This document shows positions 7,177-33,184 of a stretch of 35,620 nucleotides of DNA, piece by piece. Under the pieces are notes generated by a model that worked only from the letters and a program-made list of their open reading frames with translations, was not told the origin of the DNA and did no database searches. Source of the stretch: a virus (taxonomy: Duplodnaviria; Caudoviricetes); the IMG/VR virus record IMGVR_UViG_3300032162_000004, positions 1-35,620 of that record; one strand, given 5' to 3'. Each line of letters starts with the position of its first letter. Positions within the stretch are counted from its first letter, which is position 1. Made by a program: the position numbers and the translations under genes.

Positions 7177-9321
7177 CTACTGCACGGCCTGCCATGATGA
7201 CGGGCTGGCCGGGTTGCCGCCAAGGAACCGATGCCCCTGCTGCACGGTGCCAACCGCAGGCACCACCGGCGCAGATGCCGATCCTGCCTGCGTGGATCGC
7301 GGCTGCATGGATATGCGCCCCGTCTTGCCTTCCACGGTGTCATTCGGCGCAGCGCGAGAGACAACCTCCAGTGCGCGGCGGTATTCGTCCGCCGACAATC
7401 CCGTAGCCCAGCCCTTGACCGGCTTGCCGTTCACTTGGCCGTCTGCCGCCGACAGCCCAGCCAGCGCGCCAATGGCGCCGGCATAGACCTGCGGATTGCG
7501 CTGCCCCTGCCACTGCCGGTCGTATTCGGCCAGGGTCTGCGCGTAAGGCCCCTGGCCCGTGCGGAACGGTGCGGCGTTGGTCGAGAAGTGATCCTGTGCG
7601 CCTTTGGAGTAATCGGCATCGGCCTGCGCGCCGATGAGCTGCTTGGCCAAGATCGCTTGGTTGGTGTTCGGCAGCAGCGCATCGGACGGGTTGGCGGACT
7701 GAAACAGACGGATAGCCTGATAACCGCCGCGGGCGCCCAGGACGCCACGCTCCGCCGAGCCGGCGCCCATTAGCGCCAGCTTGCTGAACTCCTGCGCGGC
7801 CTCTGGATTGGTCATATTGGCGGCGCGGCTGGCAAACGATGCTGCAACGTCCTTCGGCAGATATTGCGCCGCAGCCTGGATGAGTTGCTGCGAAGTCGCC
7901 CCTGGAGTGATCTGCCCCACCAGATCACGCATGGTCTGCAGGTTGATTTGCGAAGACCGCGCAGCCTGGCCGGCATCCGCAATGCCACCAATCTCCTTGC
8001 TGTCCCGCTCATAATCTGCCGTCTGCACCGTGGCCGGATTGACGGGGGCCTGGTAGGTGCCACCCTGACCCGGCTGCGGCATGGTGGCGGGAGCGCCGAG
8101 CTGGAGGGATGCAGCCGTAGCGGGGGCACCGACGCCAGCCGTGCCCGGCGTAGTCAGCGTCTGCCCCGGCCCAACCGTCATTGGCTTGGCGCGGTCCATG
8201 TTCAGGTCCACCGCCGCATTCGCCGCGTGCGTCTGCTGCGCCCCGAGTTGCGTCACACCCTCGTTCATAGCGTGCAGTTGTGCTTCCGGCGCCACCTTGC
8301 CAGCAGCGGTAGCATTTGAAGCCGCGGAAATCGCGCCGTAACCGCCCGGCACCGCGACCACGTTGCCTTGGCCGTCCGTCACCGCGCCGACCTTCGGGAT
8401 TTGATCCAGCGCCTGCTGGAACGCCGCAGCGGCCCGCATCCCGGCGCCCTTCGGTTCCGCCAGCGCCATCTGCCGCATCAGAGCGATGCGACGGACCTCC
8501 GACTGCGCCGAATTGGGCTGTTGCGAGGCCGGTGCAGACGCAGAAGCTTGCGCCGCTGGCAGAACGCCAGAACTTGGATCGTTCGATGCCACCTGCACAC
8601 CAGCAGACGGAGCCGGGGCGCCGTTCATCATTGCGGCCACAGTGTCGCTATGCCCCGCCGCGTGCATCGCCGACATACCGTGAGCCACATAGGCTTGCGC
8701 GCCGGGCGACAAGCCGGCAATACCCTTGCCGCTGGCGATGGCTGCCTGCATGGCGCCCGGTCCAGCATTGTAGGCTCCCAGCGCGTAGTCAGGGCGCCCA
8801 AACTTCTCTTGCATCATGTGCAGGTATTCGGTGCCCACCTGCTTGCCGATATCCGGCTGCGCCGCGAGCTGCGCGTGTGTGTAGTTCGTGCCAAGCCGCG
8901 TGTTCACGTCGGCCAGCGCCTCGGGATGCACCTGCATAGGGCCGGCAGCCTGCCCGCCGTCGCCCATGATGCCGGGCCGCATGGACCCCCTGCTTTCGTT
9001 CTGATGCACAGCATCGGCCAGCGAGAACCCGCCAGACACTGGCGTGCTGCCCTGGCCAACCGTAGCCGAACCGGGGGCTGCCGACAGCGTATTAGGCGTG
9101 GCGGGGGCTGCGTTCGATGCACCAAGATCGGTTAGCCCGTTGATGCCTTGCAGCAGCATGTTGACCTGCGCCGGCTGCACCGCCGCCGTGTAGTCGTTCT
9201 GCATCTGCGCGCCGCGCAGAGCTTCTTGGCCAGACTGAACCTGCAACGCATGAAGATACGGCTGCGCCGCATCCAGTAGCGTGTTTTGGACCGGAGTTAC
9301 GTCGCCAAACATGCCCGCCAT
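7177..9321 (-). CDS. Ejection protein with a lytic transglycosylase (SLT) domain
   Basis: SLT motifs AVHQNES, AAGPMQV, EYLHMM and ALGAYNAGPG. Confidence 0.85.
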   Translation of the reverse strand: MAGMFGDVTPVQNTLLDAAQPYLHALQVQSGQEALRGAQMQNDYTAAVQPAQVNMLLQGINGLTDLGASNAAPATPNTLSAAPGSATVGQGSTPVSGGFSLADAVHQNESRGSMRPGIMGDGGQAAGPMQVHPEALADVNTRLGTNYTHAQLAAQPDIGKQVGTEYLHMMQEKFGRPDYALGAYNAGPGAMQAAIASGKGIAGLSPGAQAYVAHGMSAMHAAGHSDTVAAMMNGAPAPSAGVQVASNDPSSGVLPAAQASASAPASQQPNSAQSEVRRIALMRQMALAEPKGAGMRAAAAFQQALDQIPKVGAVTDGQGNVVAVPGGYGAISAASNATAAGKVAPEAQLHAMNEGVTQLGAQQTHAANAAVDLNMDRAKPMTVGPGQTLTTPGTAGVGAPATAASLQLGAPATMPQPGQGGTYQAPVNPATVQTADYERDSKEIGGIADAGQAARSSQINLQTMRDLVGQITPGATSQQLIQAAAQYLPKDVAASFASRAANMTNPEAAQEFSKLALMGAGSAERGVLGARGGYQAIRLFQSANPSDALLPNTNQAILAKQLIGAQADADYSKGAQDHFSTNAAPFRTGQGPYAQTLAEYDRQWQGQRNPQVYAGAIGALAGLSAADGQVNGKPVKGWATGLSADEYRRALEVVSRAAPNDTVEGKTGRISMQPRSTQAGSASAPVVPAVGTVQQGHRFLGGNPASPSSWQAVQ

Positions 9322-10019
9322 CAGGCAAACCCGCCGATCTTGCCGTTGTTTCCAGTGCCCGCAAACGGATCGGTCGCGCCGATGCCCAGCAAGTCGTTGA
9401 ACTTGCCGTTATTAAGTGCGGTGTTAACCGTGCCGCCCAGGCTATTCGCCACGTTCCCGTAAATGCTCGCTTGTGTGCCGGCGGCATTACCGTTCGCGTT
9501 CGCCTGCTGGTTTGTGCTGCCAGACAGCACGCCGTTATAGATGGCCGTTGCCTGGTTATCCAGGCCGGCGCCCTGCAGGCCCATGCCTGACAGCGAGTTA
9601 AGCCGCCCGAAATACTGACCGAAATCCTGATTGGCGAGGTTGCTGCCCAGCGTCTCTTCCGCTTTCAGCGTGGCCCCTGAACGCAGCATCCCGCGCGATG
9701 CAGCTCCGGCATCCACGCCCTTGAGGCCCTGCTGCACCTGGTAGGCATAGCCCGGCGATGCCTGGAAGGTGGCCATGGCAGCGGCCCCGGCGTCCGGTCC
9801 GCCCAACCCCAAAAGCGCGTTCTGCTGCGTGAGTGCGCCCTGGCCCGTCGAGATGTAGGGCTGCACGTTGGCGCGGTCGTTCGTGTAGTTCTGCCCGGCA
9901 ATCTGCCGCGCCTGCCGCTGCAGTGCGGCATTCTCAGAATTGGCGCCGTCCACAGCGCCCGATTGCAGCGCGCCGCCGATCAGGCTGGCCGCACCGGAGA
10001 AGACTGCACCCCACGGCAT
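9321..10019 (-). CDS. DNA transfer / pilot protein, P22 gp7-like
   Basis: Gly/Ala N-terminus; motifs QPYISTG, SPGYAYQVQQG and AASRGMLRSGATLKA; first of three ejection genes. Confidence 0.8.
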   Translation of the reverse strand: MPWGAVFSGAASLIGGALQSGAVDGANSENAALQRQARQIAGQNYTNDRANVQPYISTGQGALTQQNALLGLGGPDAGAAAMATFQASPGYAYQVQQGLKGVDAGAASRGMLRSGATLKAEETLGSNLANQDFGQYFGRLNSLSGMGLQGAGLDNQATAIYNGVLSGSTNQQANANGNAAGTQASIYGNVANSLGGTVNTALNNGKFNDLLGIGATDPFAGTGNNGKIGGFA

Positions 10020-10354
10020 CAGGCGACGTCCAACGTGTGTATTTCGTGGATTGGCAGGCTGCCGTTCTCATCCAGCCGATGCACGCACAGCACGGTTGCC
10101 CGCTCAAGCGCCAGAAACAAGTGCTTGGCGCGCGCCTTAATGACGATGCCGGCCGGCGCCATGAAATCGCCCATCAGTTTGCCATCCTGCCACACACGCA
10201 CCGAACCCGTTGCGATTACGGACAAATGTTCCATGTCGTGGCTGTGCTGGGGTATATAGGTCCCGGCCTGAAACACGGCGGTCTTGACGAACAGCCCTTC
10301 GCAAAGGGTGATGTCCGTCGCAATCGGCTGATCCGCCAGCTTGGTGAGCTGCAT
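10019..10354 (-). CDS. Cupin-fold protein
   Basis: IPQHSHDMEHLSVIATGSV...KHLF cupin motif; ATG at 10354 forms a TGATG overlap, so shorter than the ORF-track call. Confidence 0.75.
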   Translation of the reverse strand: MQLTKLADQPIATDITLCEGLFVKTAVFQAGTYIPQHSHDMEHLSVIATGSVRVWQDGKLMGDFMAPAGIVIKARAKHLFLALERATVLCVHRLDENGSLPIHEIHTLDVA

Positions 10355-10692
10355 CACGAGGCCCTTACAAAAGTCTGCTGCGCCGGGATGCCAGCGCTGT
10401 TGCCATCCAACGATGGGATGCTCGGCAACCGCGCGCTCGTGGCTGGCGGCGTCTGGCCGGGCGCCAGCAGCGGAACCAAGTCGGGATAATCCGCCCGCTG
10501 GATCTGACGACCGTCGCACAGCAACCAGCTCTTGCCGAGGTCCGTGCGCGCGGTTTGCCGATAGTCCCCGACCTGCCAATCCGCCGCGTGCGCCTGCTTG
10601 GCCAGCGCTGACATGAACTTGGTCCATGCCTGCGATGCCTGCCCGCCGCCGTCCGCCAGGGTGGCATTCTGCGGCGGGACTAGGCTTTTCAC
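10354..10692 (-). CDS. Small phage tail-collar-domain protein
   Basis: VGDYR...WLLCDGRQIQRADYPDL...RLP matches the tail collar motif; GTGA overlap with the upstream gene. Confidence 0.75.
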   Translation of the reverse strand: MKSLVPPQNATLADGGGQASQAWTKFMSALAKQAHAADWQVGDYRQTARTDLGKSWLLCDGRQIQRADYPDLVPLLAPGQTPPATSARLPSIPSLDGNSAGIPAQQTFVRAS

Positions 10693-12098
10693 CCGGCAAC
10701 ACCGGTCAACTGCGCATCCACGCCGTAGATCACGGCCCGGTTGCGCAGCGTCAGACGCAGGCTACGCTGCCGGAAGCTGCCGAGCCGATCCGTGAATACC
10801 CGGCGGCGATGCTCAAATCCGGTGCCTGACGACATGACCCGCTGCGGCCCATAGGTGAACCCGCCATCATCGGACCAGTCCAGCGTCACGTCGCCCGTGC
10901 TGCCCGTCTCCATCTCCACCTCAAGCCGGTGCAAGAAGCCGCGGCCGGCATCGGCCCACAGTGGCGGGAGTATCACCATGCGCTCCACGAGCTCCCCGGC
11001 ATCCGTGCCGAGCGACGGGTCCGGCGACCAAACTTGGCCGGTTCGATAGTCGCCAAACAGCACAATGTCCGAGCGCAGCACCGCGCATTGTGGACGCCAT
11101 CGCCCATTGCCGTTCACGTCACTGCTACGGTCGTGCCAGAGCTTGGTCGCCACGTCGTAGACCACCGTCCGGCCGGCAAACGTCAGCGCGTAGAAGATGT
11201 GCCCGTCCTGCGAGTAGGTCAGCGCCGCGACGACCGATGGCGCACTCTCGGACCGGATCAGCGCCTCAATGGAATGCGTGCTGACGCGCCGGCCCTGATA
11301 GCCGTCTGACCGATACACGATGCAATCCGTACCCACCCACCACACGCTGCCGTCCGCTTGGGCAACGCCGCGGGGAGAGGCTGATCCGTAAGGGACGACG
11401 CCGCCCGGCTGCGGTGCGAAAGGAAACCCGGGGCCGGGGTCAATCACGACAGCCCAGACCTGCACGCCGGCCTCGCCCAGCATCCACAGGTCGCCTCGAT
11501 GCGCCATCACGCGGCGGACCACGTTCGGCAGGGCATCGCTGTATGCGAAATCGAAGGCGTCGTAGGTCGTGGGGTCCAGCAACTGACTGCTGAAAAACCT
11601 GGTGTCGTTGTCTGCGCCCGTGAACACGAAGTAGCCGGCCAGGTAGGCCACGCTCGCGGCCCCTGGGAAGTTGCCGCCGATCTGGTGCAGCACAAGGTCG
11701 GAATGCCCAGCCACATAGGCTCGTGGCGGCATGCACACCACGATGGCGGTCGGCCCTACAGCGATGGTGATCAGGTGCAGGCTGTCCGTGATGCCGACCG
11801 AGCCAAGGTTGATCGGAACGCCCGTGGGTTCCGACCGATACAGCGTGCCGCCAGACACGACGTAGAGCCTGCCCGGCAGGTCATCGTTCATTGCCCAGAT
11901 CGGCCCGGTGCCGTAGGTCGCGGCCAAGGCAAGCCCGGGCGTGGACAGCAGCGCCACGTCGCTGCGCGCGTCCGACGGCTCCTGCTCAGCAAAAAAATTA
12001 AGCAACCTTTTGGTTGTCAGCGGCGGCGAAAGATGCTGGTAGCTGTCCGTCGCCAGCGGCAGACGGCGCAGCGTGCGCGGAGAGGGTGCTTGGGCCAT
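10689..12098 (-). CDS. Packaged DNA stabilization / tail nozzle protein, P22 gp10-like
   Basis: LLSTPGL, TYSQDGHIFY, YDVATKLWH, WSDDGGFTY and RLGSFRQR; beta-propeller-like; about 470 aa. Confidence 0.88.
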   Translation of the reverse strand: MAQAPSPRTLRRLPLATDSYQHLSPPLTTKRLLNFFAEQEPSDARSDVALLSTPGLALAATYGTGPIWAMNDDLPGRLYVVSGGTLYRSEPTGVPINLGSVGITDSLHLITIAVGPTAIVVCMPPRAYVAGHSDLVLHQIGGNFPGAASVAYLAGYFVFTGADNDTRFFSSQLLDPTTYDAFDFAYSDALPNVVRRVMAHRGDLWMLGEAGVQVWAVVIDPGPGFPFAPQPGGVVPYGSASPRGVAQADGSVWWVGTDCIVYRSDGYQGRRVSTHSIEALIRSESAPSVVAALTYSQDGHIFYALTFAGRTVVYDVATKLWHDRSSDVNGNGRWRPQCAVLRSDIVLFGDYRTGQVWSPDPSLGTDAGELVERMVILPPLWADAGRGFLHRLEVEMETGSTGDVTLDWSDDGGFTYGPQRVMSSGTGFEHRRRVFTDRLGSFRQRSLRLTLRNRAVIYGVDAQLTGVAG

Positions 12099-12164: not shown

Positions 12165-13591
12165 TATTGCGACCCTCCGCCAACAATGTTACCGATGCCA
12201 GCGTTGGAGACATTGGTCGTCACGTTTCGGTAAGCATTGGCCTGCACGGTGACGCCGCTTGTCCCAGGCTCCAGAGCGACACCATAAGTCAGGTTGACAA
12301 AGGTATTACCCGTGATGATGCCGGCGTTAAGGGCGTCGTTCGCAACCAAGTGAACACCCGTCGCATCATTGGAAAACTGTTCGCCCGCGCCGAATAGGAT
12401 GCCCACAAAGTGATTGCCGGTAATGCTCACGCTATGGTTGCCGCCGCTGAACACACCTTGCTGAGTGCTCGGCAGGAATATGATGTTGTCGTGAACGCCG
12501 AGCCGCATAACGCCAGCCCGCAAGAATATCTGATAGCGCGCCGTGTTTAACTGGCTGTTCGAGATCGTCAGCTCGTCGGTATTGACCGAATCCAACTCCT
12601 GATAAATGCCAAACTGGCCAAGGGTAAAATTGAGTTTGTCGAGCTGATACCCCTGCGACCAAGTTCCGATCTTGATGCCATAACCCAGGTTCCAGAACCC
12701 AGACCGGGTGACGTTGAACACGGCAGCCAGGCATCCGCTCGGGTAGGCAGCGCCAGGCGCAGTTCCTTCCAGCAACATGCCGATCCCGGTTTCGTTCGGG
12801 TTGGTAAACACTGCCGGGTCAGCGTCGGTGATGTTCATGCCGTCCACGTCGATGAAGCTGACGTTGGTCGCATGGACGCCCATCCGCCAAAACTGTGTCG
12901 GGCCGCTCATCTGGAAACGGCCGGTGCCCATCATGGACACGTCGCGAATTTCGGAATGGTAGGGCGTGCCGGGGCAGGCGCTAGACCCCGCATTGGAAAA
13001 GTCGTTCGTCGCCGTGATGGCGTCTGCCGTGCCGGCCTGCGCGGTCAGCAGCGTCATCCGCTCGACGGCAAAGCTGTGATGATCGGAATGCTCGGCAAAC
13101 AGGATGCCACCGGTTGTGCCCGTCCAAAACAGCGACGTGCCAGCCGAGCCGATGCCGCGGATGATGGCGCGGTGCGTGCCCGTGGTCGGAAACGGCCATG
13201 AAAGCTGAGCGTCGAACTTGTAGATGCCCGCGCCGAACTGCACACAGCCTTGGCGCGGCGCCGCAATCGCTGCCACGGTGGCAAATGCCGTGTCGCTCGC
13301 AGTCGCGCCGGTCGGATCGGCACCAAACATGTCGATGTTGAGACATGGCTTGTTCGCTGCGTCCCGCAAAGCCATGGCTGTGGCGCTACCAGTCGGCGTC
13401 ACATGCTGGCTGGACACGTCGCCATTGATGCCCTGCTTGGCCGCTAGGCCCCCATCAACGTAACCCTTAGGTGTAGCCTGGGCCGGATCGGTCGGCGTCG
13501 CCACCTTGGGCGATGGCAGATTTTGGGCTTGCGCCAGCAATGGCAGCAACAGCGCCAGCGTTGCGAGCGTGGGGACCGTCACGATACGCAT
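12164..13591 (-). CDS. Right-handed beta-helix (pectate-lyase-like) tailspike/depolymerase with an apparent signal peptide
   Basis: NIDMFGADPTGATASDTAF...FGAGIY start motif; ITGNxF repeats; ATPKGYVD neck motif; hydrophobic N-terminus ending AQA. Confidence 0.8.
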   Translation of the reverse strand: MRIVTVPTLATLALLLPLLAQAQNLPSPKVATPTDPAQATPKGYVDGGLAAKQGINGDVSSQHVTPTGSATAMALRDAANKPCLNIDMFGADPTGATASDTAFATVAAIAAPRQGCVQFGAGIYKFDAQLSWPFPTTGTHRAIIRGIGSAGTSLFWTGTTGGILFAEHSDHHSFAVERMTLLTAQAGTADAITATNDFSNAGSSACPGTPYHSEIRDVSMMGTGRFQMSGPTQFWRMGVHATNVSFIDVDGMNITDADPAVFTNPNETGIGMLLEGTAPGAAYPSGCLAAVFNVTRSGFWNLGYGIKIGTWSQGYQLDKLNFTLGQFGIYQELDSVNTDELTISNSQLNTARYQIFLRAGVMRLGVHDNIIFLPSTQQGVFSGGNHSVSITGNHFVGILFGAGEQFSNDATGVHLVANDALNAGIITGNTFVNLTYGVALEPGTSGVTVQANAYRNVTTNVSNAGIGNIVGGGSQ

Positions 13592-13785
13592 ACGAATCCA
13601 CCGTTATTCCATGGCAGGCCGGGCGTGGTTGGCTGGGCTTTGGGCAAAACTGAGAGATCAGTTGCAACAAGCAACGCTGCAAATTGCGGCACTTGCACAA
13701 ACTGCGCAAAGATCGCGCTCAGCTCGGCCGCCGTCAGCTTGTGGGCGTTAGGCGACGGAAGGTCGATGAGGGGAATAATGCTCAT
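13579..13785 (-). CDS. Small tail-associated protein
   Basis: ATGA overlap; C-terminal LPKAQPTTPGLPWNNGGFVCVS; N-terminus shared with 13971..14906. Confidence 0.7.
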   Translation of the reverse strand: MSIIPLIDLPSPNAHKLTAAELSAIFAQFVQVPQFAALLVATDLSVLPKAQPTTPGLPWNNGGFVCVS

Positions 13786-13970: not shown

Positions 13971-14906
13971 CTAAACGGTCCTGATTTTTAGAAAGCCATC
14001 CGGCGTCACGTATACGCGGCTGACTGGCAATCCAGCGGCTACTGCGGCAGCTTGATCCGCCAGTGCCGGCAGACCAAACACGTCCAGGCCGGCATTGGCT
14101 GATAACCGGCCAAAGGTCGTGATCCCCACGCATTCAATATGGTCATCATAAAGCGTAAAGGCGACGTTTCGACTCGGACCTTGCAGAACGACGCCGGCAT
14201 TCGCGAAGATGAGTGCTCCGCCCCCGCTCGGCAAAGTGACATCGGACCGAATTTCGGAAATCAAATGCCCGCTGACCGGTTCGCGCCAGCCTACCGTGTA
14301 GCCGGATGGCATATCCACTGCAATTTGCGTGGCCAAGCTGTCAGCGCCGAAGATGATGCCTTCAAGGAATTGGCACGCTTTGCTTGCGTTAACCGTCATG
14401 ACGGAACTGACGTTCGTCCCATAGCCCAGATCGGGCCGCCCGGCGCTGGCCCAGTAGGCGGTGGTGAAGCCGGGCATGATGGGGTTATAAGAGGTCGTTT
14501 GCACCACGTTGCCAGCGTTGGCAACGTTGACCTCAATGCCTTGAGTGTAGCCAGTGATCCCGGCATCGCGGCGGGCTTCGATATAACCGCCGTAGGCCGT
14601 TTGTACTTGTGCTATGTTGTTGTTGATCGAGAAGCTGCCAAAGGCAAAAGCTCCCTGGCTCCCGCTTTGAGTATTATCGCTTGTCCGAGTGGCAAACACC
14701 GCTGCGGCATGACCAACTTGGGACTGAAATGTTGCGGTATTACCCGGCCCGCCCAGCCCAGGAACGCTGGCAAGCCAGTTGCCCCCCACGATGGCGTTGG
14801 GTACGCCGGTTCGCACATCTTGATCGCCTAGGAGTTTCATGAACTCGGTCGCCGTCAGCTTATGCGCGCCTGGCGTTGGTAAATCCACGATGGCAATAGA
14901 AGTCAT
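13971..14906 (-). CDS. Tail fibre / spike-like protein
   Basis: Beta-rich Gly/Ala/Asn composition; C-terminal AAAVAAGLPVSRVYVTPDGFLKIR; lies in the tail module. Confidence 0.65.
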   Translation of the reverse strand: MTSIAIVDLPTPGAHKLTATEFMKLLGDQDVRTGVPNAIVGGNWLASVPGLGGPGNTATFQSQVGHAAAVFATRTSDNTQSGSQGAFAFGSFSINNNIAQVQTAYGGYIEARRDAGITGYTQGIEVNVANAGNVVQTTSYNPIMPGFTTAYWASAGRPDLGYGTNVSSVMTVNASKACQFLEGIIFGADSLATQIAVDMPSGYTVGWREPVSGHLISEIRSDVTLPSGGGALIFANAGVVLQGPSRNVAFTLYDDHIECVGITTFGRLSANAGLDVFGLPALADQAAAVAAGLPVSRVYVTPDGFLKIRTV

Positions 14907-14912
14907 GCTACG

Positions 14913-15599
14913 TCACCCTAACCGGAACTGGCCAAGCAGGCCCTGACCAAGGATGGTCGTGGGGAGTATGGCGACATTGTCGAACAGCCCGATGCCAGGC
15001 CCGCCGATGGCAGGGTCTGGCACTCCAATGCCGAATTGCGGGTCCAGGCCCAGGTTATCAAGCAATCCGATACCAAGGCCACCCAGCGCCGGGTCAAGCG
15101 CGCCGATGCCATCCAGCAGCAGGCCCGCCGGCAGCCGCGGCAGCACGATGCCACCGCGCACATCCAACAGCCCACGGGCGATAATGGCACCGCCACCTGC
15201 ACCGTCCAGCGACAGCAGCATCTCGTATCGGCCAGACCAGCAGCCTGTGACCTCGCGCGGCATCGTCACCTGCGCCGTGCCCAGCAGCGGGTCGATCGGC
15301 GTTGCGGCGGCCTGCCACAGGATGCGGTGCGGCTCAGTCAGCCAGCCCAAGCCATAGTCGCAGTGGGCGCCGTAGCCGTAGCCAGCGCCGTAGCTGCTCG
15401 GCCATGCGCCGCCGTGCATCACAGTGGCGGTCAGGACGCATTGCGTCAGGTCCAGCGCGTTGCCGGCGGTGTCGAAAATCGTGAGCGCCAGGGTGATGTC
15501 ATCGCCGCGCGAAATGGCGAGGTTGCGGACCGGCATCCGCAACGGTGACGCGCGGGTGATCTCAATTGCGAAGGGGATCAGGGTGCCGGCGTAGGTCAT
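14913..15599 (-). CDS. Virion protein with a BppU-like Ig-type domain
   Basis: ISRGDDITLALTIFDTAGNALDLT; ATG at 15599 in a TAATG overlap; Gly-Leu-Asp repeats at the C-terminus. Confidence 0.6.
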   Translation of the reverse strand: MTYAGTLIPFAIEITRASPLRMPVRNLAISRGDDITLALTIFDTAGNALDLTQCVLTATVMHGGAWPSSYGAGYGYGAHCDYGLGWLTEPHRILWQAAATPIDPLLGTAQVTMPREVTGCWSGRYEMLLSLDGAGGGAIIARGLLDVRGGIVLPRLPAGLLLDGIGALDPALGGLGIGLLDNLGLDPQFGIGVPDPAIGGPGIGLFDNVAILPTTILGQGLLGQFRLG

Positions 15600-17191
15600 T
15601 AGAAATACGGCACCACGACCGGCCGGCGCAGCGACGGCACTGAGATGCCACGGGTCAGCATCATGTCGCCCATCTGCCACAAGTTCGGATCGGCCTTGAC
15701 CTCGAACTCAGGAGCCAGCAGCGCCGCGGCCATTGAGACGTATGGCTCCTCTGCCCAAACTGGAAGATCGCCTCCGTAGAGGGTCCAGCGCACACGCCCG
15801 CGGGCCTCAAGATCGGCGTGCACCGCCTTAACCTTCTGTTCAGCCAAGGCCTGCCCGAGCGGCCCGCCCATCACCGTGCGGCGGATCCGGCTTTCCATTG
15901 CGGCATACATCTGCAGGTCGAACGGCTTACCAAACTCCGGCCCCATCTGCTGCACGGCAAGGTCGGTCACCGCATCAGCCAAATACGCCGGGATGTGGTC
16001 GGCGTCCCAATCGGCCAGACCCAGCGCGGACAATTCTGACGCAATGGCGCGGACCCGATCCGCAGCCCGCAGCGCCACGCCTGCGATCACCGCAGCCTTG
16101 CGGATGCTGGACTCGGCAGCTTCGTAATCGGCGCGGCTGACTTGCCGGTCCGGCGCATCCTGCCGCACGCCCAGCGCCGGGGCCAAGGTGGCAGAGGCCA
16201 TCGTCACATAGTGCGCGGCATGAGCCACAGGCACGGCGGCCAGCGGCCAGGACACGATGCCCTGCGTCACTAGCGCGTCGTGCGCCGCGGCGACCTCCTG
16301 CTCAGCCAGTGCCTGCCCGCGGTAGCCGGACAGCACGAAGCGCCGTGCGGCTGCCATCGTCGCATCCTGCGCCGCGGGATCGGGCGCTTTGCCGAACACC
16401 GGAGCCAGCAGCGCTGCCGTCATGGAAGCGTAGGCATCGGCCAGGGCCAGCGGTATCGCGTTCAGCAGCCACGTCGCCAGCCCGGCCGACACCAGCATGT
16501 CGTGCACGGTGGCAACGCGGTTCTCGGCACGGGCCTGCGCGACGGGGCCGGTCAGCGCCTGCCGCCGGATCATCTCCAGCGCCTCGGCGTAGGCCTCAGC
16601 GTTGCCCGGCAGGCCGAAATACGGGCCGAGCAGGTGCGCGGTCATGGCGATGTAGTGCGGCGCCACGCTCAGCGGCACGGCAGACAATGGCCACGCCACG
16701 TAGTCAAGCGACACCAGCGCATCGTGCACGGCGACCACCTGTGACGTGGCGAGCGCCTGATCCTCATTTGAGGGCATCTCGTCGGCAGCGGTCACCGTCA
16801 GCTTGGCCAGCGCCTGCTTGGCCAGCGCCGCAAAATCGGTTGCCGCGCCAGACGCCAGGCCAGCCACATCCTGCGGATTGACGCCCAGCAGCAGCAGCGC
16901 ACGCCGGGCCGGGTCAAACGCCGGCACTAGCGAGGTGACGACCTGCGGGCCGGCAGGATTACCACCGAGCGCACGGGCAGTGCGCGTTCCCATCTCGGCC
17001 AGCGTCACCGTGCCGTTGCTCGCCGGCCAGTCGGCAGCCGCCACCGGAACCCCGAGCTGCCGCGCAACCCGGCCCGCCACGTCCTGCGACGTGAGGACCG
17101 GGCCGGCAGCCGCGACCGCAGACGCCGGGATCAGCGCCAAGCCGATCTTGCGGAGCGCGCGGGCGCCGAGTTGTGTGACGGTGGCGGCCAC
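15599..17191 (-). CDS. Head-tail adaptor (P22 gp4-like fold) with five-fold internal amplification
   Basis: Starts TVTQLGARALRKIG; central ALAKLTVTAADEMPSNEDQALA; five copies of H..L......W....P......A..L.P.FG; located after the MCP. Confidence 0.7.
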   Translation of the reverse strand: MAATVTQLGARALRKIGLALIPASAVAAAGPVLTSQDVAGRVARQLGVPVAAADWPASNGTVTLAEMGTRTARALGGNPAGPQVVTSLVPAFDPARRALLLLGVNPQDVAGLASGAATDFAALAKQALAKLTVTAADEMPSNEDQALATSQVVAVHDALVSLDYVAWPLSAVPLSVAPHYIAMTAHLLGPYFGLPGNAEAYAEALEMIRRQALTGPVAQARAENRVATVHDMLVSAGLATWLLNAIPLALADAYASMTAALLAPVFGKAPDPAAQDATMAAARRFVLSGYRGQALAEQEVAAAHDALVTQGIVSWPLAAVPVAHAAHYVTMASATLAPALGVRQDAPDRQVSRADYEAAESSIRKAAVIAGVALRAADRVRAIASELSALGLADWDADHIPAYLADAVTDLAVQQMGPEFGKPFDLQMYAAMESRIRRTVMGGPLGQALAEQKVKAVHADLEARGRVRWTLYGGDLPVWAEEPYVSMAAALLAPEFEVKADPNLWQMGDMMLTRGISVPSLRRPVVVPYF

Positions 17192-17933: not shown

Positions 17934-19079
17934 TTACTGGTCGTTCGGCGCCGCGGTGAAGATCGTATAGACGCCGTGGTCCACGAGGTTCGTGTTCTGC
18001 TGCGCCGGATCTGCGTTCCGCGAGAACCGCAGCTTGTCCAGGCCGCGGATTTCCTCGCAGCCGATGCCGTGCTCGAACTTGTAGTCGTAGGTGTCCTCAG
18101 TGAACTCGAAACGCTGCGCCAGGGCATAGCCCACGGCCTGCGCACCACAGAGGACGTTCTGCTCGACTGGAACCGGCGTCGCGGCACCGTTCGGAAACGC
18201 CGTGAACTCGTATTCCTGCTTGACGATGATGCCGTTGGTGATGAGGTCGCCGCCCGTAAACAGCGGATTGTCCTTGCCGCGTTCCATGCCGAGCTGCAGG
18301 TCCTGGCGCATCTCGGGATCGTCGTAGAGGTCGCGGAACGCTGCCGGGCCGAGGAACGCGACATACCACTCCTGGCCACCGCTTTTCTGGCGGACGGGGC
18401 GGATGCGCGGCTTGGCCTGCTGGGCGCGGCGTTTGGCCAGGCTCAGCACGCGGCGGGTCATGCGACCGCCGAAGTCGGCGCGGGTACCGCCAGCGCCAGG
18501 CGTGACGGTGCCGGTCAGGTTGGCAAGGCTCGCGGCCATCGTCGGGGCCGTGTTGCTCATCTTCTCGCCGTACTGCACGCGATCCGCGTTATCCAGCGCC
18601 CACTGGTCCCGCTGTGCGGGTGTGGCGACGCCATAGGTCAGGCCGTTGATGCTGTGAAAAGCGTTGATGATGTCGACGCGGAACAGCTCAAGCGACCAGT
18701 TCTTGAGGCTCGGCTTGGCCGCACTCATCTTGTCGATGAGTTGCTTCTTGGCGGTCCACTTGTCGATGGCCACCGCGTGCCGGATGAAGTCCACGATGAT
18801 GGACATATACCGGTCGCCAAGGAGCTCCTCATTGCCGCGGAGAACCTGGTGCCCGCGCACACCAGCGCCGGCAAGACGGTTGATGAATGCGAACTGCACC
18901 CGGTCGCCGTTGCGGCGCAGCAGGTCTTCCTTGACCTGGATGATCGCGCCCTCATCGCTGCCGATGTAGGGGGTATACATATTCTCACGCACGAACTCGC
19001 GGTAGAAGTCGCGAGCAAAGATCAGCGGTACGTTTACTGCATTCTCTGGTGAGAGATTCATCGGATCGGCCACGGCCAA
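17934..19079 (-). CDS. Major capsid protein (N4-gp56 / DUF4043-like)
   Basis: IIQVKEDL...GDRVQF, LRGNEELL, NPLFTGG, LCGAQA and DHGV; GGAG RBS with TTG start. Confidence 0.88.
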   Translation of the reverse strand: MAVADPMNLSPENAVNVPLIFARDFYREFVRENMYTPYIGSDEGAIIQVKEDLLRRNGDRVQFAFINRLAGAGVRGHQVLRGNEELLGDRYMSIIVDFIRHAVAIDKWTAKKQLIDKMSAAKPSLKNWSLELFRVDIINAFHSINGLTYGVATPAQRDQWALDNADRVQYGEKMSNTAPTMAASLANLTGTVTPGAGGTRADFGGRMTRRVLSLAKRRAQQAKPRIRPVRQKSGGQEWYVAFLGPAAFRDLYDDPEMRQDLQLGMERGKDNPLFTGGDLITNGIIVKQEYEFTAFPNGAATPVPVEQNVLCGAQAVGYALAQRFEFTEDTYDYKFEHGIGCEEIRGLDKLRFSRNADPAQQNTNLVDHGVYTIFTAAPNDQ

Positions 19080-20238: not shown

Positions 20239-20520
20239 CTAAATACGGCTCTGCCCCCAAGGCGGACGCGAGTCCAAAGCTTCCTCGGCCACAATCTCTA
20301 CCAGCTTTGGGTCATTTTCCCAAGACGGGGCGATAAGCCGCATCTCAAACCAAGTCTGCAAATCGGCAAACGCCTTCGGCAATGCTAGAAGCATCTGCTC
20401 CGGCGTCATGCTTTCGCCCGGCAACGCAACAGCATGGCGGATCACCTCGCCGCCAACTGTCACCTTGACCATAACCACTAATGCATCTGGGATGGTATCA
20501 AGCATATCAAAATCGCTCAC
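20239..20520 (-). CDS. Hypothetical protein
   Basis: GTGA overlap with the portal stop; protein-like composition. Confidence 0.6.
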   Translation of the reverse strand: MSDFDMLDTIPDALVVMVKVTVGGEVIRHAVALPGESMTPEQMLLALPKAFADLQTWFEMRLIAPSWENDPKLVEIVAEEALDSRPPWGQSRI

Positions 20521-22586
20521 TGTGTCATTCCTTGCTGCTGTGGCGCTACCGGCGGCGGTTGCATAATCGGATTCATTTCTGGCTGCACCGGTCCCACGCC
20601 GGGCACCACAGGAACGTGCTGCGCCTCAGCGTGATCCATCGCCATGCCATGCACCTTCACGGTGCTATCCACCTGCCGGCTCTGCGCCTGTGCCATCTTG
20701 TCGGCGGCGTCGGCCTGCGCCTTGGCAAGCTGCGCGTGCATCATCTGCGCCTGCATGGCCTGCTGCGCCTGTTGCCCAGCCGCCTGCTGCTGCTGGTGCT
20801 CCTTGATCTGCTCGACCAACTTGTCCTTGTCCTTGAGGCTGCTGGCCTGGATCAGCACCTCGACCGGGATCGCGCCCGGGTTGGCCTGCGCGAACTGCAT
20901 CAGCGCCTGGAACTGCTCGGCCGCCATCGTGGGCGTATCCTGGCCCTCCTCAAGCGTGATCTGCATATCCAGGCCGCCGAGGTCGTTCTCGTATTTGACC
21001 ACGATGCCCAAGCGCGGATCGCCAGGCCGGATGCCATACCGCTGCGCCTGCATGGCTTTCTGATCAGGTGGCAAACGGGCAAGGGCTTCCCCGAAAGTGA
21101 TGGGCGTGTTGATGCCGACGAACTTGCTGCTGCCATTGTCATCGGTCACATGCAGCCAACGCTTACCATCCCAGAACTGGCGAATGCACATGTAGCCGCG
21201 CTCATACATGCGCCGCGACCATAGCCGTAAGCCGTCGAAGTCCGGCTCCTGTTCAACAGCGCCGCCAGCCTGCTGCAAGCTGATGGCCCGGCCAGACAAC
21301 TCCCGCGGGTCCTTGCCCATCATGCTGGAGTTGGGGCCGTGGCCTTGAAGCCGCGCGATGGTATGCTGCAGCAGCTCGAACTGCCCGGTGGACATATCGG
21401 TGTCGCGGTTCACCTCGAACTTAAAGCCCCGGTTGACCGCAACGGCGCCGTCAGGGCGCGCAATCTGGTCGCGGGCGTCATCGACGTCGTCAACCGCGCC
21501 TTCCTCGTAGATGATGCTGCGCGTTTGCAGGATGTGCATCAGCTTGGACCGGCGGGCGTTGATCTCGCTCTGCAGCGGGATCAGGTCGCGGATCAGGCCA
21601 TAGCGGTTGTTCTGGCCGTCCACATGGGCCGAACGCAGGATCAGCGGGCAGGCCGTCTGGCCGCGCCGATCCACGTAGGGCGACACTACCGGGCCATGCA
21701 GGAAACCGCCGCGGGTGTAGATACCGGTCCACCAATCACCGCCGTGCTGCCAATGGCATGTCACGATGCGGACTCGAGTACGGGAGCTGTCCACCCAAGC
21801 CGTGCTTGGCCGGTCGCCGTAGGTGTTGGCGGACCAGTCGTGCTCGTTGCCGAGGGTCTGGTCCAAGATCGCGCGGGCCTTGGGGAACAGCGACAGGAAC
21901 TGCTCCTTGTCGCCCCAGATCACGGTGCCAAGGTGGCGTGCGTCGTGGAAGTCAGGGTCGGCGCTGTATTGGTCCCACCATAGCCGGCTGAACGGGATGT
22001 GGTGCATCCGCACGTCCATCGTGCCGTCGGCCGTGGCCTCGACCACGACTTCCGCGCCGCCCACGCCCTCAATGGCGATGTTGGCGAACACGTCGGAACG
22101 CAGCCGGTTGAACACGTTATCGTCGGTGACGTAGCGCAGCGCCTGCGTGGCGGCGTCGGCAAGGCCCTCATCGGTCGGTGTGCGCGGGTATGCCTTGGGG
22201 TCAGAGCGCAAGCGGCGCTCGGCGCCCATCATGTAATCCACTTTGCTGCGGATCATGTTGTCAACGATGGGCGGCTGACCGCGCTCGGCCAGTTCTGCGA
22301 TCTGCGCTGCGGACCACTGCTGGCCGTCATACCAAGCCCTGTCCCGCTCGGACAGCTTGCGGGCTGGTGCGGTCGCCATCTCGGCCGCCTCAAACCGGCG
22401 CACCAAGTCATCTAGCAGCAGGTCTAGGTCGCCGTCCCAATCCTTGTCAGGAGCCTGCGGACGCTCGGCAGGGCGGGCCGCGGGGATGTGCGGATACATG
22501 CTGCCGTAAGCCGACATGCCCGGCGCCCCGGTGCGGGCGATTGCGCCGCCATCGGGGGACGATGCGCTGTCGGGAAGGCTTTGCAT
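20517..22586 (-). CDS. Portal protein, P22-like
   Basis: WYDGQQW, RGQP..N, YGLIRDLIPLQ.EIN.RRSK, SGRAI; Gln-rich C-terminal barrel. Confidence 0.92.
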   Translation of the reverse strand: MQSLPDSASSPDGGAIARTGAPGMSAYGSMYPHIPAARPAERPQAPDKDWDGDLDLLLDDLVRRFEAAEMATAPARKLSERDRAWYDGQQWSAAQIAELAERGQPPIVDNMIRSKVDYMMGAERRLRSDPKAYPRTPTDEGLADAATQALRYVTDDNVFNRLRSDVFANIAIEGVGGAEVVVEATADGTMDVRMHHIPFSRLWWDQYSADPDFHDARHLGTVIWGDKEQFLSLFPKARAILDQTLGNEHDWSANTYGDRPSTAWVDSSRTRVRIVTCHWQHGGDWWTGIYTRGGFLHGPVVSPYVDRRGQTACPLILRSAHVDGQNNRYGLIRDLIPLQSEINARRSKLMHILQTRSIIYEEGAVDDVDDARDQIARPDGAVAVNRGFKFEVNRDTDMSTGQFELLQHTIARLQGHGPNSSMMGKDPRELSGRAISLQQAGGAVEQEPDFDGLRLWSRRMYERGYMCIRQFWDGKRWLHVTDDNGSSKFVGINTPITFGEALARLPPDQKAMQAQRYGIRPGDPRLGIVVKYENDLGGLDMQITLEEGQDTPTMAAEQFQALMQFAQANPGAIPVEVLIQASSLKDKDKLVEQIKEHQQQQAAGQQAQQAMQAQMMHAQLAKAQADAADKMAQAQSRQVDSTVKVHGMAMDHAEAQHVPVVPGVGPVQPEMNPIMQPPPVAPQQQGMTQ

Positions 22587-22626: not shown

Positions 22627-22971
22627 ATGGCACGAAGGAACAACTGCGCCGTCGCCCGCGGTATCAGCACCAGCAAGATGACGGCAGTGACCTGGGCGAC
22701 GTTCGACGCCCTGCCGCGCGAGGTGCGCCGGGCGCTGTGGGAAAGCCCGGTGCCGATCAATCCGGACAGCGTGGCGCAGGCGCTGTCATGGGCCGGTGTG
22801 CACGAGGTGCTGGCGCGGATAGAGCGCAACGTTTACCAGGAGGTAAGCTTATTCGCTGACCAGCACCGGCTGCGGCATGGTTACGAGCTGCCGCACGTTG
22901 CGGCTGATGTTGGGATGCAGCCGTATCAAGCCGTCAGATCAACAAGCCGATCTTCCTGGCGAAATCAATAG
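22627..22971 (+). CDS. Hypothetical protein, DUF6525-like; the only credible intact plus-strand gene
   Basis: FDALPREVRRALWESPVP; GC-ending codons; fills the gap between portal and HNH. Confidence 0.6.
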   Translation: MARRNNCAVARGISTSKMTAVTWATFDALPREVRRALWESPVPINPDSVAQALSWAGVHEVLARIERNVYQEVSLFADQHRLRHGYELPHVAADVGMQPYQAVRSTSRSSWRNQ

Positions 22972-23536
22972 GGTCAGCGGCGTGCTTGCGATTATTGCAC
23001 GGCTGGCAGGTTAACTGAAGATTGCGGCGGTCGTTAGAGCCGCCCTTAGATATCGGCACGATATGATCAGTGTGGTATATTTTAGGTAATCTCTTGCGAC
23101 AATACGCACACTTCTTTTTCTGCATGACGAAGATGTCTTTTATATCTTCACCACTATGCGTGCCGCCTGCAAGCTCTTTGCTACGTCTATTGTTGGCATA
23201 TGATCTATATGCATCACGTCTTGCGATACGCCTGGCTTTGTTCTGCTCTCTAACCTTGTCGGCGTTCTTCCTGTTCCACTCGCGCTTGTATTCACGCCAG
23301 CGCTCTGGGTTTGCCTGCTGCCAAGCGTCTAGCTTAGCACGATAGGCATCAGGATTGCTTCTGGCCTGCTTCGTAGTTACCAGAAGGTGACACGCCATGC
23401 AGTTACCTTGAATAGACCGCAATGACGCATGGCCACGCTTGCAAGCTTTCCCAGTAAAATAATGCGTTGCCCCAACCGCTCTCGCATCGGCACGCGTGAC
23501 GACAGGCCCTACATGTGGCACATACTGCTTAGCCAT
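22934..23536 (-). CDS. HNH endonuclease
   Basis: YFTGKACKRGH N-terminus; CAYC...HTDHIVPISKGGSNDRRNLQLTCQPCN; AT-richer than its flanks. Confidence 0.92.
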   Translation of the reverse strand: MAKQYVPHVGPVVTRADARAVGATHYFTGKACKRGHASLRSIQGNCMACHLLVTTKQARSNPDAYRAKLDAWQQANPERWREYKREWNRKNADKVREQNKARRIARRDAYRSYANNRRSKELAGGTHSGEDIKDIFVMQKKKCAYCRKRLPKIYHTDHIVPISKGGSNDRRNLQLTCQPCNNRKHAADPIDFARKIGLLI

Positions 23537-25083: not shown

Positions 25084-25484
25084 TGCGTCGTCTCGTTGCC
25101 CTTGCCCAGCGCGATTGCGGTCAGGGTGCCATCGTCCAACACGCTCACGTCGTCTGGCGTCAGGTTGATGTTGCGGGCGATAGGTGTGCCCTCGTGCCGG
25201 TTGAGCCACGCAACCGCCGCCGTGACCTGCGTTTCTTGGCGCTCGGCATTGCGGGCCAGGTCAAACAGGTGATCCTTGAGGGCCTGTGCAGCCTCGGCTC
25301 CACGGCGGGAACTGGCAGCAGCTTGGTTGCCTGGCGCAAACGGTGCGGGCATCAGCTTATTGGCACGCAAGCCCTTCGGCTCGCCAGGGGATCGAGCTGC
25401 ACCACCCCAGCTTTCGCCCTTGCCCGAGCCGTTGCCGTGCCGTGTGCCTGACGTGGGCGGGCGCTTGAGCTTGTCAGCCATCAT
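25080..25484 (-). CDS. terS: Terminase small subunit (putative)
   Basis: Immediately upstream of terL; PFAPGN motif and helical WLNRHEG segment. Confidence 0.7.
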   Translation of the reverse strand: MMADKLKRPPTSGTRHGNGSGKGESWGGAARSPGEPKGLRANKLMPAPFAPGNQAAASSRRGAEAAQALKDHLFDLARNAERQETQVTAAVAWLNRHEGTPIARNINLTPDDVSVLDDGTLTAIALGKGNETTH

Positions 25485-26127
25485 GCACCCCCACCGCCTT
25501 CACGGCCCCGCGCGCAACCTCGACGGCGACCTCGCTGCCCAACACCTGCATCAGCAGCCGCGTCCGCGTCTCGCTGGACCACAGGCACACACCCTCATGA
25601 TCGGCGAACGGCCCGTTGGTGACGCACAGCCGCTCGCCCGCGGTGAACGCCGGCAACTCGGCGGATAGGATGGAACGGGCATCGGACTCGGCCATGAACT
25701 TCTCAATCTGGCCGCGCCGTACCGGAATGGGCCGCAGCGTTTCGGTCAGGAACAGGCGCCGCACGCCGCGGGTTGAGACGATGGGCCGCCACTGGTCGGT
25801 CAGCGGACAGAACCGCACGAACAGGTAGCCGCGGAACAGCGGCATCTCGACCTTGTGCGTCTGGCTCGGCAACACGCGGTCAGGGCGGCGCTCGGTGACC
25901 ATCGGCAGGAACGCGGCGTATCCCTGGCGAACCAAGTTCTCGTGCGCCCAGCGCTCGGCTTGGCTATGGGTTTGAATGCAATGCCAGCGCGGATCGGGTG
26001 TCGCACGATGGCTACCGCAGTCCAGAGCGGCCAAGCTGTGGCCACCCTCGACTGAGGCTTTCCCTTCTAGAACATCCGATTGCGGCTTGTCAACTATCTT
26101 CTCCTCGACACGTGTCACTATGCTCAT
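25474..26127 (-). CDS. NusG/RfaH-family transcription antiterminator
   Basis: NGN motifs WHCIQT..QAE, PLFRGYLFV and STRGV; KOW-like GERLCVTNGPFAD. Confidence 0.9.
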   Translation of the reverse strand: MSIVTRVEEKIVDKPQSDVLEGKASVEGGHSLAALDCGSHRATPDPRWHCIQTHSQAERWAHENLVRQGYAAFLPMVTERRPDRVLPSQTHKVEMPLFRGYLFVRFCPLTDQWRPIVSTRGVRRLFLTETLRPIPVRRGQIEKFMAESDARSILSAELPAFTAGERLCVTNGPFADHEGVCLWSSETRTRLLMQVLGSEVAVEVARGAVKAVGVHDG

Positions 26128-30247: not shown

Positions 30248-31148
30248 GGGAAGCCTCCCCGTCAAGGGTTACAGGGCTGTCAAGGTCGTCCATCACGTCA
30301 AAGCGGCTCTGGATGCCGAGCTTGCGGCGGCGCTCCTCGGAGTGCGTTTCCCGGCGCTGCGGCAGTTGTGTCGGACGTGCCTGCATCGGCTCGTCCTTCC
30401 ACCGTCCAGCCCGTAGCCATGACGCCGGAAGCGGGATGTAAGTTGGATCGGTGTTGAACCGGAAACGGGCAAGTCCAGCCATGATTTCAGCTACGCCGAC
30501 CCCATGCGAGATGACGGAACGCCAAGCTTTCAGGCCGTCGTCGGACGCCTCGTGGCGCGGATAGGCGGCGTAAAACGCGGCGAACTCAGGATCAGCTTTC
30601 GCGGCTCGGGATCGGACGAGTGAGCGAAGCGAACGGTCTTCTTTCTTTTCTTCTGGTGAAGGTGAAGGTGGCACGCCCGCGTAAGGGCATGGCGTTTGCA
30701 CATCCAAACGTGATGCATTTGCAGATGCATATGCATCATCATTTGCATGTCCATCTGCATCGACTGAACCGCCGTTTTCACCCCCTCCTGTATCTCCTTT
30801 TGCAGCCTGCTTGCGCCGCTGTTCCTTCCAACGAAGGTCAGCAGCGGCCCGCTTCTTGGCGCTGTTCTCGTCGGCATCAAAACGCTCGGCATCCAAGCGC
30901 TTCTGGCGCAGCTTGCCATCAGCGGCGGTGAAGAACCCGCGCACGATGAGTCCGGTGTCCGCCGTCCAAGTCTTTCGATCCACCCGCGCGATGCCAGCCA
31001 ACGCCCGATCATCATCCGGCAGTGGACCATTGCGCCAGTAGTGCATGAGCAGCAGCAGGTATGCCCCATGCTCCCGCGCCTCAAGGTGCATGGTATCGGC
31101 CAGATAGTCCCCGATGTAGAGGGGCATCCAGGTTGCAGTTTTGCTCAT
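30231..31148 (-). CDS. DUF1376 (YdaU-like) replication initiator
   Basis: WMPLYIGDYLADTMHL...HGAYLLLLMHYW; C-terminal FAAFYAAYPR...PASWLRAGRWKD. Confidence 0.88.
   Translation of the reverse strand: MSKTATWMPLYIGDYLADTMHLEAREHGAYLLLLMHYWRNGPLPDDDRALAGIARVDRKTWTADTGLIVRGFFTAADGKLRQKRLDAERFDADENSAKKRAAADLRWKEQRRKQAAKGDTGGGENGGSVDADGHANDDAYASANASRLDVQTPCPYAGVPPSPSPEEKKEDRSLRSLVRSRAAKADPEFAAFYAAYPRHEASDDGLKAWRSVISHGVGVAEIMAGLARFRFNTDPTYIPLPASWLRAGRWKDEPMQARPTQLPQRRETHSEERRRKLGIQSRFDVMDDLDSPVTLDGEASHVRLN
30637..30765. other. Putative replication origin inside the initiator gene
   Basis: Dense TGCA/ATGCAT/TTTGCA repeats at about 30695-30760 next to a T/C tract at 30637-30654. Confidence 0.55.
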
Positions 31149-32773: not shown

Positions 32774-33076
32774 CTACATCCCAAGCGCGCGGCGATACAC
32801 GTCCAGCAGGCTCTCCTGCTCAGCCACATCCGCCGGCTCCTGCTTGCGGATGCTGATGACGGCGCGGATCACCTTACAGTCAAAGCCAGCACTCTTCGCC
32901 TCGGCAAAGATGTACTTGATGTCGGAACCAAACGCCTTGCGCCCCTCCTCCAGCCGCTCGACCCGCTCAATCAAGGACCTCAGCCGGACCGCCGCGATGC
33001 CCTGCGTGGCAGCGTCCCGCGCATCGTTCTCCGGGTGCGTGCCGAGTACATCGGCCTCAATATCAAGCTGGGTCAT
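32774..33076 (-). CDS. gapR: GapR (DUF2312) nucleoid-associated protein homologue
   Basis: LRSLIERVERLEE.RK....DIK.IFAEAKSAGFD.KVIR...IRK...YRRALGM; GGAGG RBS before 33076. Confidence 0.92.
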   Translation of the reverse strand: MTQLDIEADVLGTHPENDARDAATQGIAAVRLRSLIERVERLEEGRKAFGSDIKYIFAEAKSAGFDCKVIRAVISIRKQEPADVAEQESLLDVYRRALGM

Positions 33077-33184
33077 GGACGCCTCCAGTTGTTGAGTTTG
33101 CGGGATCACGCCTCAAGCGCCAAGCGGAACGACTTAGGCTTGCACCACAACGATCGCATGGAACATTGATTGAGTTACTGGCGG

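Follow-up and report, generated by a model that had tools for sequence, protein, structure and literature searches.

How a head-to-tail adaptor comes to be 530 residues long, when P22 gp4 and Sf6 gp7 consist of one domain (about 150 aa), is the question raised by one gene in IMG/VR virus record IMGVR_UViG_3300032162_000004 (Duplodnaviria; Caudoviricetes), of which the whole analysed stretch of 35,620 nucleotides is here called the window. An initial annotation, made from the letters of the DNA, had proposed that the protein holds five N-terminal halves followed by five C-terminal halves of the adaptor domain, paired from the inside outwards. Structure prediction and a natural series of relatives with different numbers of layers make a fold of this kind, five nested copies of a gp4-type domain in one chain, well supported; such chains would probably build a long, stacked neck.

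Order of the half-domains

The gene has a GTG start, and the plus-strand frame over 15599..17191 is interrupted by stops. Its parts are listed below, where model ranges give the first and last residues only of a structural match.

15599..17191, minus: predicted five-layer nested head-to-tail adaptor gene, whole open reading frame (ORF), 530 aa, read 17191->15599
17096..17185, minus: N1, aa 3-32, helix 1 and linker of the outermost layer, predicted partner the last C module (profile; model range 1-530)
17009..17095, minus: N2, aa 33-61, predicted partner the 4th C module (one beta-bridge each at 33 and 400; the weakest pairing evidence)
16928..17008, minus: N3, aa 62-88, predicted partner the 3rd C module (model range 62-369 against the KP32 adaptor)
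16841..16927, minus: N4, aa 89-117, putative partner the 2nd C module by elimination (profile, model)
16796..16840, minus: N5, aa 118-132, helix 1 of the innermost layer (profile; model range 114-214)
16760..16795, minus: helix1-helix2 loop, aa 133-144, innermost layer only, putatively nozzle-facing (segment scores; analogy with crAss001 R5 residues 15-26 in the available part of PMC10172136)
16538..16759, minus: 1st C module, aa 145-218, helices 2-4 of the innermost layer (shuffles, profile, model)
16316..16537, minus: 2nd C module, aa 219-292 (shuffles, profile, model)
16070..16315, minus: 3rd C module, aa 293-374 (shuffles, profile, model)
15854..16069, minus: 4th C module, aa 375-446 (shuffles, profile, model)
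15644..15853, minus: 5th C module, aa 447-516, outermost, retaining the helix2-helix3 top loop of single-domain relatives (segment scores, profile)
15602..15643, minus: C-terminal arm, aa 517-530, with a YF end, putatively portal-binding (conservation; Sf6 gp7 arm in the available part of PMC9728967)

The helix-1 motifs named in the initial annotation start at residues 7, 37, 66, 93 and 122 (spacing 30, 29, 27 and 29), the N units at 3, 33, 62, 89 and 118, and the C modules, which are 72-84 residues long, at 145, 219, 293, 375 and 447. All ten pairs of C modules score above 300 shuffles (z 3.5-22.5). The N-unit pairs are weak (z 0.0-4.0, with p<0.05 in only five of the ten by shuffles); the N units thus become clear only with homologues, where a 21-column profile recovers all five and gives no over-threshold match in 60 shuffled proteins, a result that is partly circular, as the training set included these same sequences. 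A profile of single-domain relatives matches the protein five times (E 1.6e-24 to 5e-11) and finds a complete single domain nowhere but at the innermost junction, and the C-terminal tail nowhere but in the last module; the helix1-helix2 loop is likewise found only after N5. The proposed order, five N-halves and then five C-halves on the minus strand, is thus borne out, as is the claim that only the innermost pair keeps the normal loop and only the last module the terminal tail. In that tail F530 is invariant, and the arm as a whole is conserved yet of low confidence in the monomer model.

A tandem array of units was looked for in the DNA of the gene and none was found, and the units share only 40-57% DNA identity (measured on the identical copy L001); the duplications are thus old. 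Chance low-complexity repeats are ruled out by the shuffles together with the fold matches given below, and a recent DNA duplication or assembly artefact by the low identity, the lack of an array and the existence of 63 homologues.

Those 63 proteins come from the homologue searches, which also gave the best 150 of 565 representatives (E<=0.001) and 40 viral loci. From 247 sequences examined, 39 without the N-then-C pattern (fragments and tandem forms), 27 in which the conserved C-terminal end is missing, and 10 duplicates were excluded, leaving 171. Homologues range from 110 to 1163 residues, rising in steps of about 104, with a median unit spacing of 30 residues for N and 74 for C; there are forms with 1 to 10 layers, the ten of P0067 being counted by sequence only. 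N and C counts are equal in 150/171 sequences and N never exceeds C (0/171). The 21 cases with fewer N than C units comprise 12 in which a degenerate helix went undetected, leaving a gap one or two units long, the tandem protein P0202, L037, which is open at a contig end, P0025 and P0039, which are without N1, and five that were not inspected. Correcting for gaps raises the equal counts to 155/171, but over-counts seven long-linker proteins. The N profile was trained on the counted sequences, but N-region and C-region lengths by themselves correlate as well (r=0.98). The matched counts foreseen for homologues are supported.

Predicted fold and pairing

AlphaFold2, run on 36 five-layer sequences, gives a monomer model with a predicted local distance difference test score (pLDDT) of 84 and a predicted template modelling score (pTM) of 0.58. 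All 15 solved chains that match it at Z>=8 are phage portal-tail entries. The range 114-214, that is N5 with the first module, matches Sf6 gp7 (Z 10.4, root-mean-square deviation (rmsd) 3.1, 101 residues aligned) and P22 gp4 (Z 9.9, rmsd 2.9, 95 aligned); the range 1-530, N1 with the last module, matches the LME-1 tail (Z 10.2, rmsd 4.4, only 115 aligned), and HK97 gp6 matches over 3-517; the range 62-369, N3 with the third module, matches the KP32 adaptor (Z 6.8, 96 aligned). For N2 and N4 the partners follow from elimination, together with agreement in the number of beta-bridges. An independent relative with two layers, P0127 (215 aa), modelled by AlphaFold on 24 sequences, reaches pLDDT 90 and pTM 0.78, matches solved adaptors over 1-215 and 27-132, and has a single helix (114-150) that runs without a break through the junction between layers; P22 gp4 entries take Foldseek ranks 1, 2, 4, 5 and 6 for this model, all at E>=0.16 (top E 0.16, probability 1.00). 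In both monomer models the predicted pairing is the one first suggested, from N5 with the first C module through N1 with the last.

The gp4-type fold claimed at the outset is supported by the Sf6 gp7 and P22 gp4 matches of the predicted models and by a feature-based match, in which language-model features place a single-layer relative (score 0.95) with a cluster where 48% of members carry PF11650. Searches of Pfam, PHROGs and PDB sequences with the full 530-residue protein gave no match (E<=0.01 for Pfam and PHROGs), PF11650 matches none of 24 single-layer relatives, phrog_637 one of 24 (at E 0.05), and a single-layer profile retrieves from the PDB only Mu gpJ (E 0.8). The protein works in a gp4-like manner, as far as can be predicted, fails the single-domain feature and matches no family profile; it is thus a gp4 variant and not a plain member of the family. 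With P22 gp4 and Sf6 gp7 (PF11650; PHROG 637, 'Ad3') it shares the four-helix bundle (in the predicted models), the slot between a P22-like portal and capsid and an Hc3 nozzle, and the C-terminal arm; it differs in holding five nested copies and in the shorter arm (about 14 residues). The best viral structure match, BFVD A0A8S5PNU3 (E 1.1e-4), is a 691-residue 'head to tail adaptor' of Podoviridae sp. ct8dV2 and probably another multi-domain adaptor.

Sequence comparison offers a second view of the pairing. Counts of gained and lost units over all pairs of relatives (445 nested-only, 71 parallel-only, 254 neither, 46 both) lack independence, and 33 disjoint close pairs differing by one layer were used in their place: here the extra N and extra C units fall in nested order in 13, in parallel order in 2 (both with margins <=0.05), are undecidable in 6, and fit neither order in 12. 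Similarity among internal units, in 11 proteins with 6-10 layers, is higher for the nested order in 10 and tied in one, and is decisive in P0068 (0.73 vs -0.60). A Mantel-type test over all units within a protein favoured the parallel order, nested being higher in only 14/39; it was set aside because it is likely confounded by the outlying terminal units (innermost N and last C). These tests are mixed, and lean towards nesting.

Probable placement of the layers between portal and nozzle

By its gene content the window is that of a P22-like podophage, with terminase, P22-type portal, capsid, Hc3 nozzle and ejection genes, and the adaptor gene lies between the capsid and nozzle genes, in the slot expected for gp4. 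Its putative partners and the upstream anchor of the gene order are:

20517..22586, minus: P22-like portal, putative proximal partner (PF16510, E 6e-114)
10689..12098, minus: nozzle or head-closure protein Hc3 (P22 gp10-like), putative distal partner (phrog_578, E 5e-80)
17934..19079, minus: major capsid protein, upstream anchor of the conserved gene order (Pfam and PHROG matches, locus comparison)

The order capsid, adaptor, Hc3 nozzle is kept in 23/40 multi-layer loci, that is in all that reach the nozzle gene, and in 15/15 single-layer loci. A second adaptor-fold ORF was searched for and not found in the window (the record is estimated to be 61% complete), nor within the fetched flanks of any of 63 loci, a number that includes five window pieces and some duplicates.

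The two ends of the nested chain appear to be constant while the number of layers varies. When 110 multi-layer proteins are scored by segment against a profile of 18 single-layer relatives, the helix1-helix2 loop scores only in the innermost N units (+1.05 vs -0.94 and -0.71 bits per column), and the helix2-helix3 top loop (+1.65 vs 0.38 and 0.37) and C-terminal arm (+1.23 vs about -0.96) only in the last modules; among the N units the most single-like helix is that of N1. In solved adaptors these segments have definite places, as far as the available parts of the reports go: the C-terminal arm of Sf6 gp7 goes between portal subunits, and each nozzle subunit touches two adaptors (PMC9728967); in T7 gp11 both the channel lining and the hold on the portal clip are provided by the end of the bundle's last helix (PMC6702177); and in crAss001 residues 15-26 of the distal ring R5, which may be equivalent to the helix1-helix2 loop, contact the muzzle (PMC10172136).

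The two working faces of the adaptor are thus retained at opposite ends of a rod, which is most simply read as a five-ring barrel: twelve five-layer rods, side by side, would probably form five stacked rings between portal and nozzle. From the arm and loop positions in solved adaptors, helix 1 of each bundle would run away from the portal and helix 4 back towards it; when the helix1-helix2 loop is opened, the next bundle would therefore fit directly under the previous one, and in the models helix 4 of an inner layer does continue straight into helix 2 of the outer one. Nesting would permit such a barrel because both termini stay on the portal side while layers are added below. The part gripping the portal would be the outermost layer (N1, the last module and the YF arm), and the nozzle would sit on the innermost (N5, the loop and the first module). 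The layer number would set the length of the neck, at roughly 2.5-3 nm per layer and 13-15 nm for five (a rough estimate from a 37-residue helix over two layers). The longer neck may help the phage to reach through a capsule or to hold ejection cargo, in line with a proposal made for crAss001.

A complex prediction of the nozzle with two copies of a fragment covering the inner two layers (aa 86-289) adds weak support, scoring 0.56 against 0.13 for the best control, with runs that agree in >=88% of contacts and a partner pLDDT of >=82. The mark used for this score is reached by 116/157 solved and 2/215 mismatched pairs; at <=0.60 lie only 18 of the 157 solved pairs, but both mismatches.

Several points weigh against the barrel and the nested fold beneath it. 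The pTM of the full model is only 0.58, a Z near 10 counts as modest where helical bundles are compared, and against the PDB Foldseek gives no match at E<=0.001 for the full or the two-layer model, the full model retrieving only unrelated helical proteins. Neither order fits the 12 close pairs mentioned above, the nested and parallel scores are nearly equal in several of the 6-10 layer proteins, and the all-unit test favoured the parallel order. The segment scores are biased, because it was by way of these same proteins that the single-domain profile was obtained, and the nozzle-side position of the loop would be a transfer from other adaptors. The models are monomers, and the lateral packing of inner layers and the radius of the rings lie outside them. 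The nozzle score is weak and lacks an outer-layer control; it may stem from likeness to solved complexes of the gp7-gp8 type.

It is with the ring geometry of the inner layers in view that the first alternative has to be considered, namely that only the outermost layer forms a ring and the four inner ones project outward as a radial arm or crown carrying fibres or appendages. The initial annotation proposed a version of this, a crown or scaffold for the appendages encoded next door, and several appendage-like genes do lie between adaptor and nozzle in the window; moreover, a fibre-tail adaptor domain (PF23148, that of GP4 gp77) is fused before N1 in four relatives, so that appendages do attach near the adaptor. 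This fusion is at the portal-side layer, however, and is compatible with crown and barrel alike. The ring layer of a crown would be without the helix1-helix2 loop, which is retained only at the far end of the stack, opposite to the portal-side features, and the modules are without the beta-dock domain that bears fibres in T7-type adaptors. The interval between adaptor and nozzle genes is only about 450 bp in the five-layer loci L018, L019 and L021, and layer number falls as this interval grows (rho -0.46, n=23 loci, which are not independent), although fibres may be encoded elsewhere. A crown is thus not favoured, and we consider it unlikely.

The second alternative leaves the barrel in place and changes the partners within it: the N helices would complete the bundles of neighbouring subunits, swapping domains in trans, or would find their partners in a shifted register. 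Monomer models cannot reveal a swap, the all-unit test leaned towards the parallel order, and in P0071 and L004 (see below) layers combine N and C units of different descent, as if pairing were not highly sequence-specific. Complete nested bundles nevertheless form at high pLDDT in both monomer models, gains and losses mirror the nested order (13 vs 2), and the covalent junction of a single domain is found only between N5 and the first module; such an exchange is accordingly quite improbable. That the repeated domains are neighbours within one ring, with fewer chains per 12-fold adaptor ring and a tail that stays short, accords with the adaptor fold kept in all layers and with the existence of short-linker tandem relatives, yet is hardly credible given layer numbers of 5, 7, 8, 9 and 10, which are not divisors of 12, the single portal arm and single loop per chain, and the continuous helix that joins layers end to end.

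For the family at large, we lean, with considerable reserve, towards a barrel of 1-10 rings with fixed portal and nozzle faces, whose length would be encoded in one gene of a large, uncultured group of P22-like alphaproteobacterial phages.

Family, neighbourhood and precedents

How the layers arose is only partly as first envisaged, by recursive insertion of the domain into its own loop and not by tandem duplication: the topology is indeed nested, but in P0071 and L004 the N and C blocks are each repeated head to tail. In P0071 the alike sets are N1/N3/N5, N2/N4/N6, modules 1/3/5 and modules 2/4/6; N5 is nearer to N1 (0.58) than to the innermost N7 (0.31), and its partner C3 nearer to the first module (0.56) than to the last (0.33). 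As N5 and C3 are nearest to different older layers, the layer they form is a chimaera. L004 gives the same pattern at the DNA level (N2-N4 70%, modules 1-3 65%). In both, to judge by these similarities, a two-unit block is repeated head to tail on each side and the new layers are made of halves of different descent, which is compatible with a pair of matched tandem duplications or with a single replacement, out of register, by a contiguous piece of the gene. A whole-domain insertion could account for the second layer; the expansions after that have the look of N and C blocks duplicated in a matched way, and not of a domain inserted whole into itself. Layers would be gained and lost only as matched N and C units, likely via paired or out-of-register recombination, with selection for complete bundles. 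A last-module tree (FastTree, 171 rows, 82 columns) has 56 changes of layer number and only 15/166 starred branches; because so few are supported, no order of events is drawn from it.

Distant relatives repeat the whole 110-residue domain in tandem, in 2 to 8 copies (P0131, P0149, P0170, P0169, P0194, P0164, P0202, P0207), so that the same adaptor domain is, on sequence grounds, multiplied by two different designs; DNA context was sought for two of these tandem relatives and none was found. The divergent P0152 and P0154, with several N helices and then several C modules, look nested and are possibly independent origins of nesting. The PF23148 domain (E 1e-13 to 1e-15) precedes N1 in P0016, P0028, P0032 and P0067, which have 4, 4, 6 and 10 layers, respectively. 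Neither the full protein nor a single-layer relative has a match among 50,697 GenBank phages, and a genome-contig search gave only one locus, on a contig of a Rhodopila metagenome-assembled genome; an atlas search with the full protein gave no usable match, and two homologue searches for shorter forms gave nothing or C-terminal fragments, the single- and two-layer forms coming from other searches. The Rhodopila label and a gene for a GapR-like nucleoid protein in the window (32774-33109, minus) suggest that the host is an alphaproteobacterium.

The gene after the adaptor (14913-15599, minus; weak phrog_1084 match) overlaps its stop codon by one base (TAATG); a small gene in this place is common to many loci, single-layer ones included, and is a candidate collar or appendage anchor. 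Among the appendage-like genes between adaptor and nozzle, a 68-residue ORF (13579-13785, minus) also matches the start of a 311-residue gene (13971-14906, minus; L001), which suggests a common N-terminal anchor motif. A 755-residue protein (155-2422, minus) with a Pro/Thr-rich linker and a faint match to glycoside hydrolase family 26 (E 0.16) is possibly a virion appendage with an enzyme domain. Between the nozzle and the first ejection gene lies a small cupin-like gene (10019-10357, minus; PF07883, E 0.002), kept in many related loci. An ejection protein with a lytic transglycosylase domain is encoded at 7177-9321 (minus), a NusG-like antiterminator at 25474-26127 (minus), and two HNH endonucleases at 22934-23536 and 31145-31690 (both minus), one of them between terminase and portal. 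Two long minus-strand ORFs, 34092-35222 and 34184-35041, overlap in different frames, and both match DNA-methyltransferase PHROGs (phrog_363, E 2e-73; phrog_1008, E 2e-18).

The closest structural precedent, in the part of its report that is available, is the tail barrel of crAss001 (PMC10172136), where five stacked adaptor-fold rings (R1-R5) from four genes lie between portal and muzzle. It resembles the five-layer adaptor in its five layers of adaptor fold, in a ring number that varies among relatives and in a distal 12:6 contact via residues 15-26, and its chain 7qog B matches the five-layer model at Z 7.4; it differs in being built from four separate paralogous genes with beta-sandwich domains, whereas the five-layer adaptor is one gene, purely helical and nested in prediction, and the crAss001 barrel is seen directly where ours is deduced. 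According to the accessible text of a preprint (bioRxiv 10.1101/2025.06.11.659172), Pa223 forms two rings from 24 copies of one small protein, gp63, and GP4 two rings from two genes, gp81/gp82; both have coaxial adaptor rings that lengthen a podophage neck, and both entries are among our structural matches, but their ring number is not written into one chain. The part available of a 2026 paper lists three ways of lengthening podophage tails, none a fused or nested adaptor (PMC13730344). No description of a nested adaptor was found in full-text literature searches, most subscription papers (including the original GP4 structure paper) and preprint supplements lying outside their coverage.

For the nesting itself, parallels come from outside phages, again as given in the available parts of the sources. 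Si3 of the cyanobacterial RNA polymerase beta' subunit shows recursive insertion up to six levels, a domain repeatedly hosting its own kind in one loop in the order A1-B1-C-B2-A2 (PMC13114784); there the units are small beta hybrid motifs in a monomeric arm, whereas the nested adaptor would be a helical bundle in an oligomeric virion channel, reaching a depth of 10 in P0067. In the A/P stalk of streptococcal antigen I/II, repeats flanking a central domain pair out and back to form a rod that sets reach (PMC7732690), but these are helical and proline-rich segments of unrelated sequence and role, not split globular domains.

Podophages are already known to lengthen their necks via separate ring genes or extra copies of one protein; here the ring number would be fixed within one chain, with a natural series of 1 to 10 layers. 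The family is a clean case of growth in a nested repeat protein, its halves kept equal (with no excess of N in any of the 171 sequences) and tandem versions at hand for comparison. The layer series makes the tuning of neck length for reach or cargo directly testable, and offers a modular protein tube of defined length. If the barrel is true, these phages would carry a built-in ruler without a tape measure, retunable in steps of about 3 nm by the matched gain or loss of halves.

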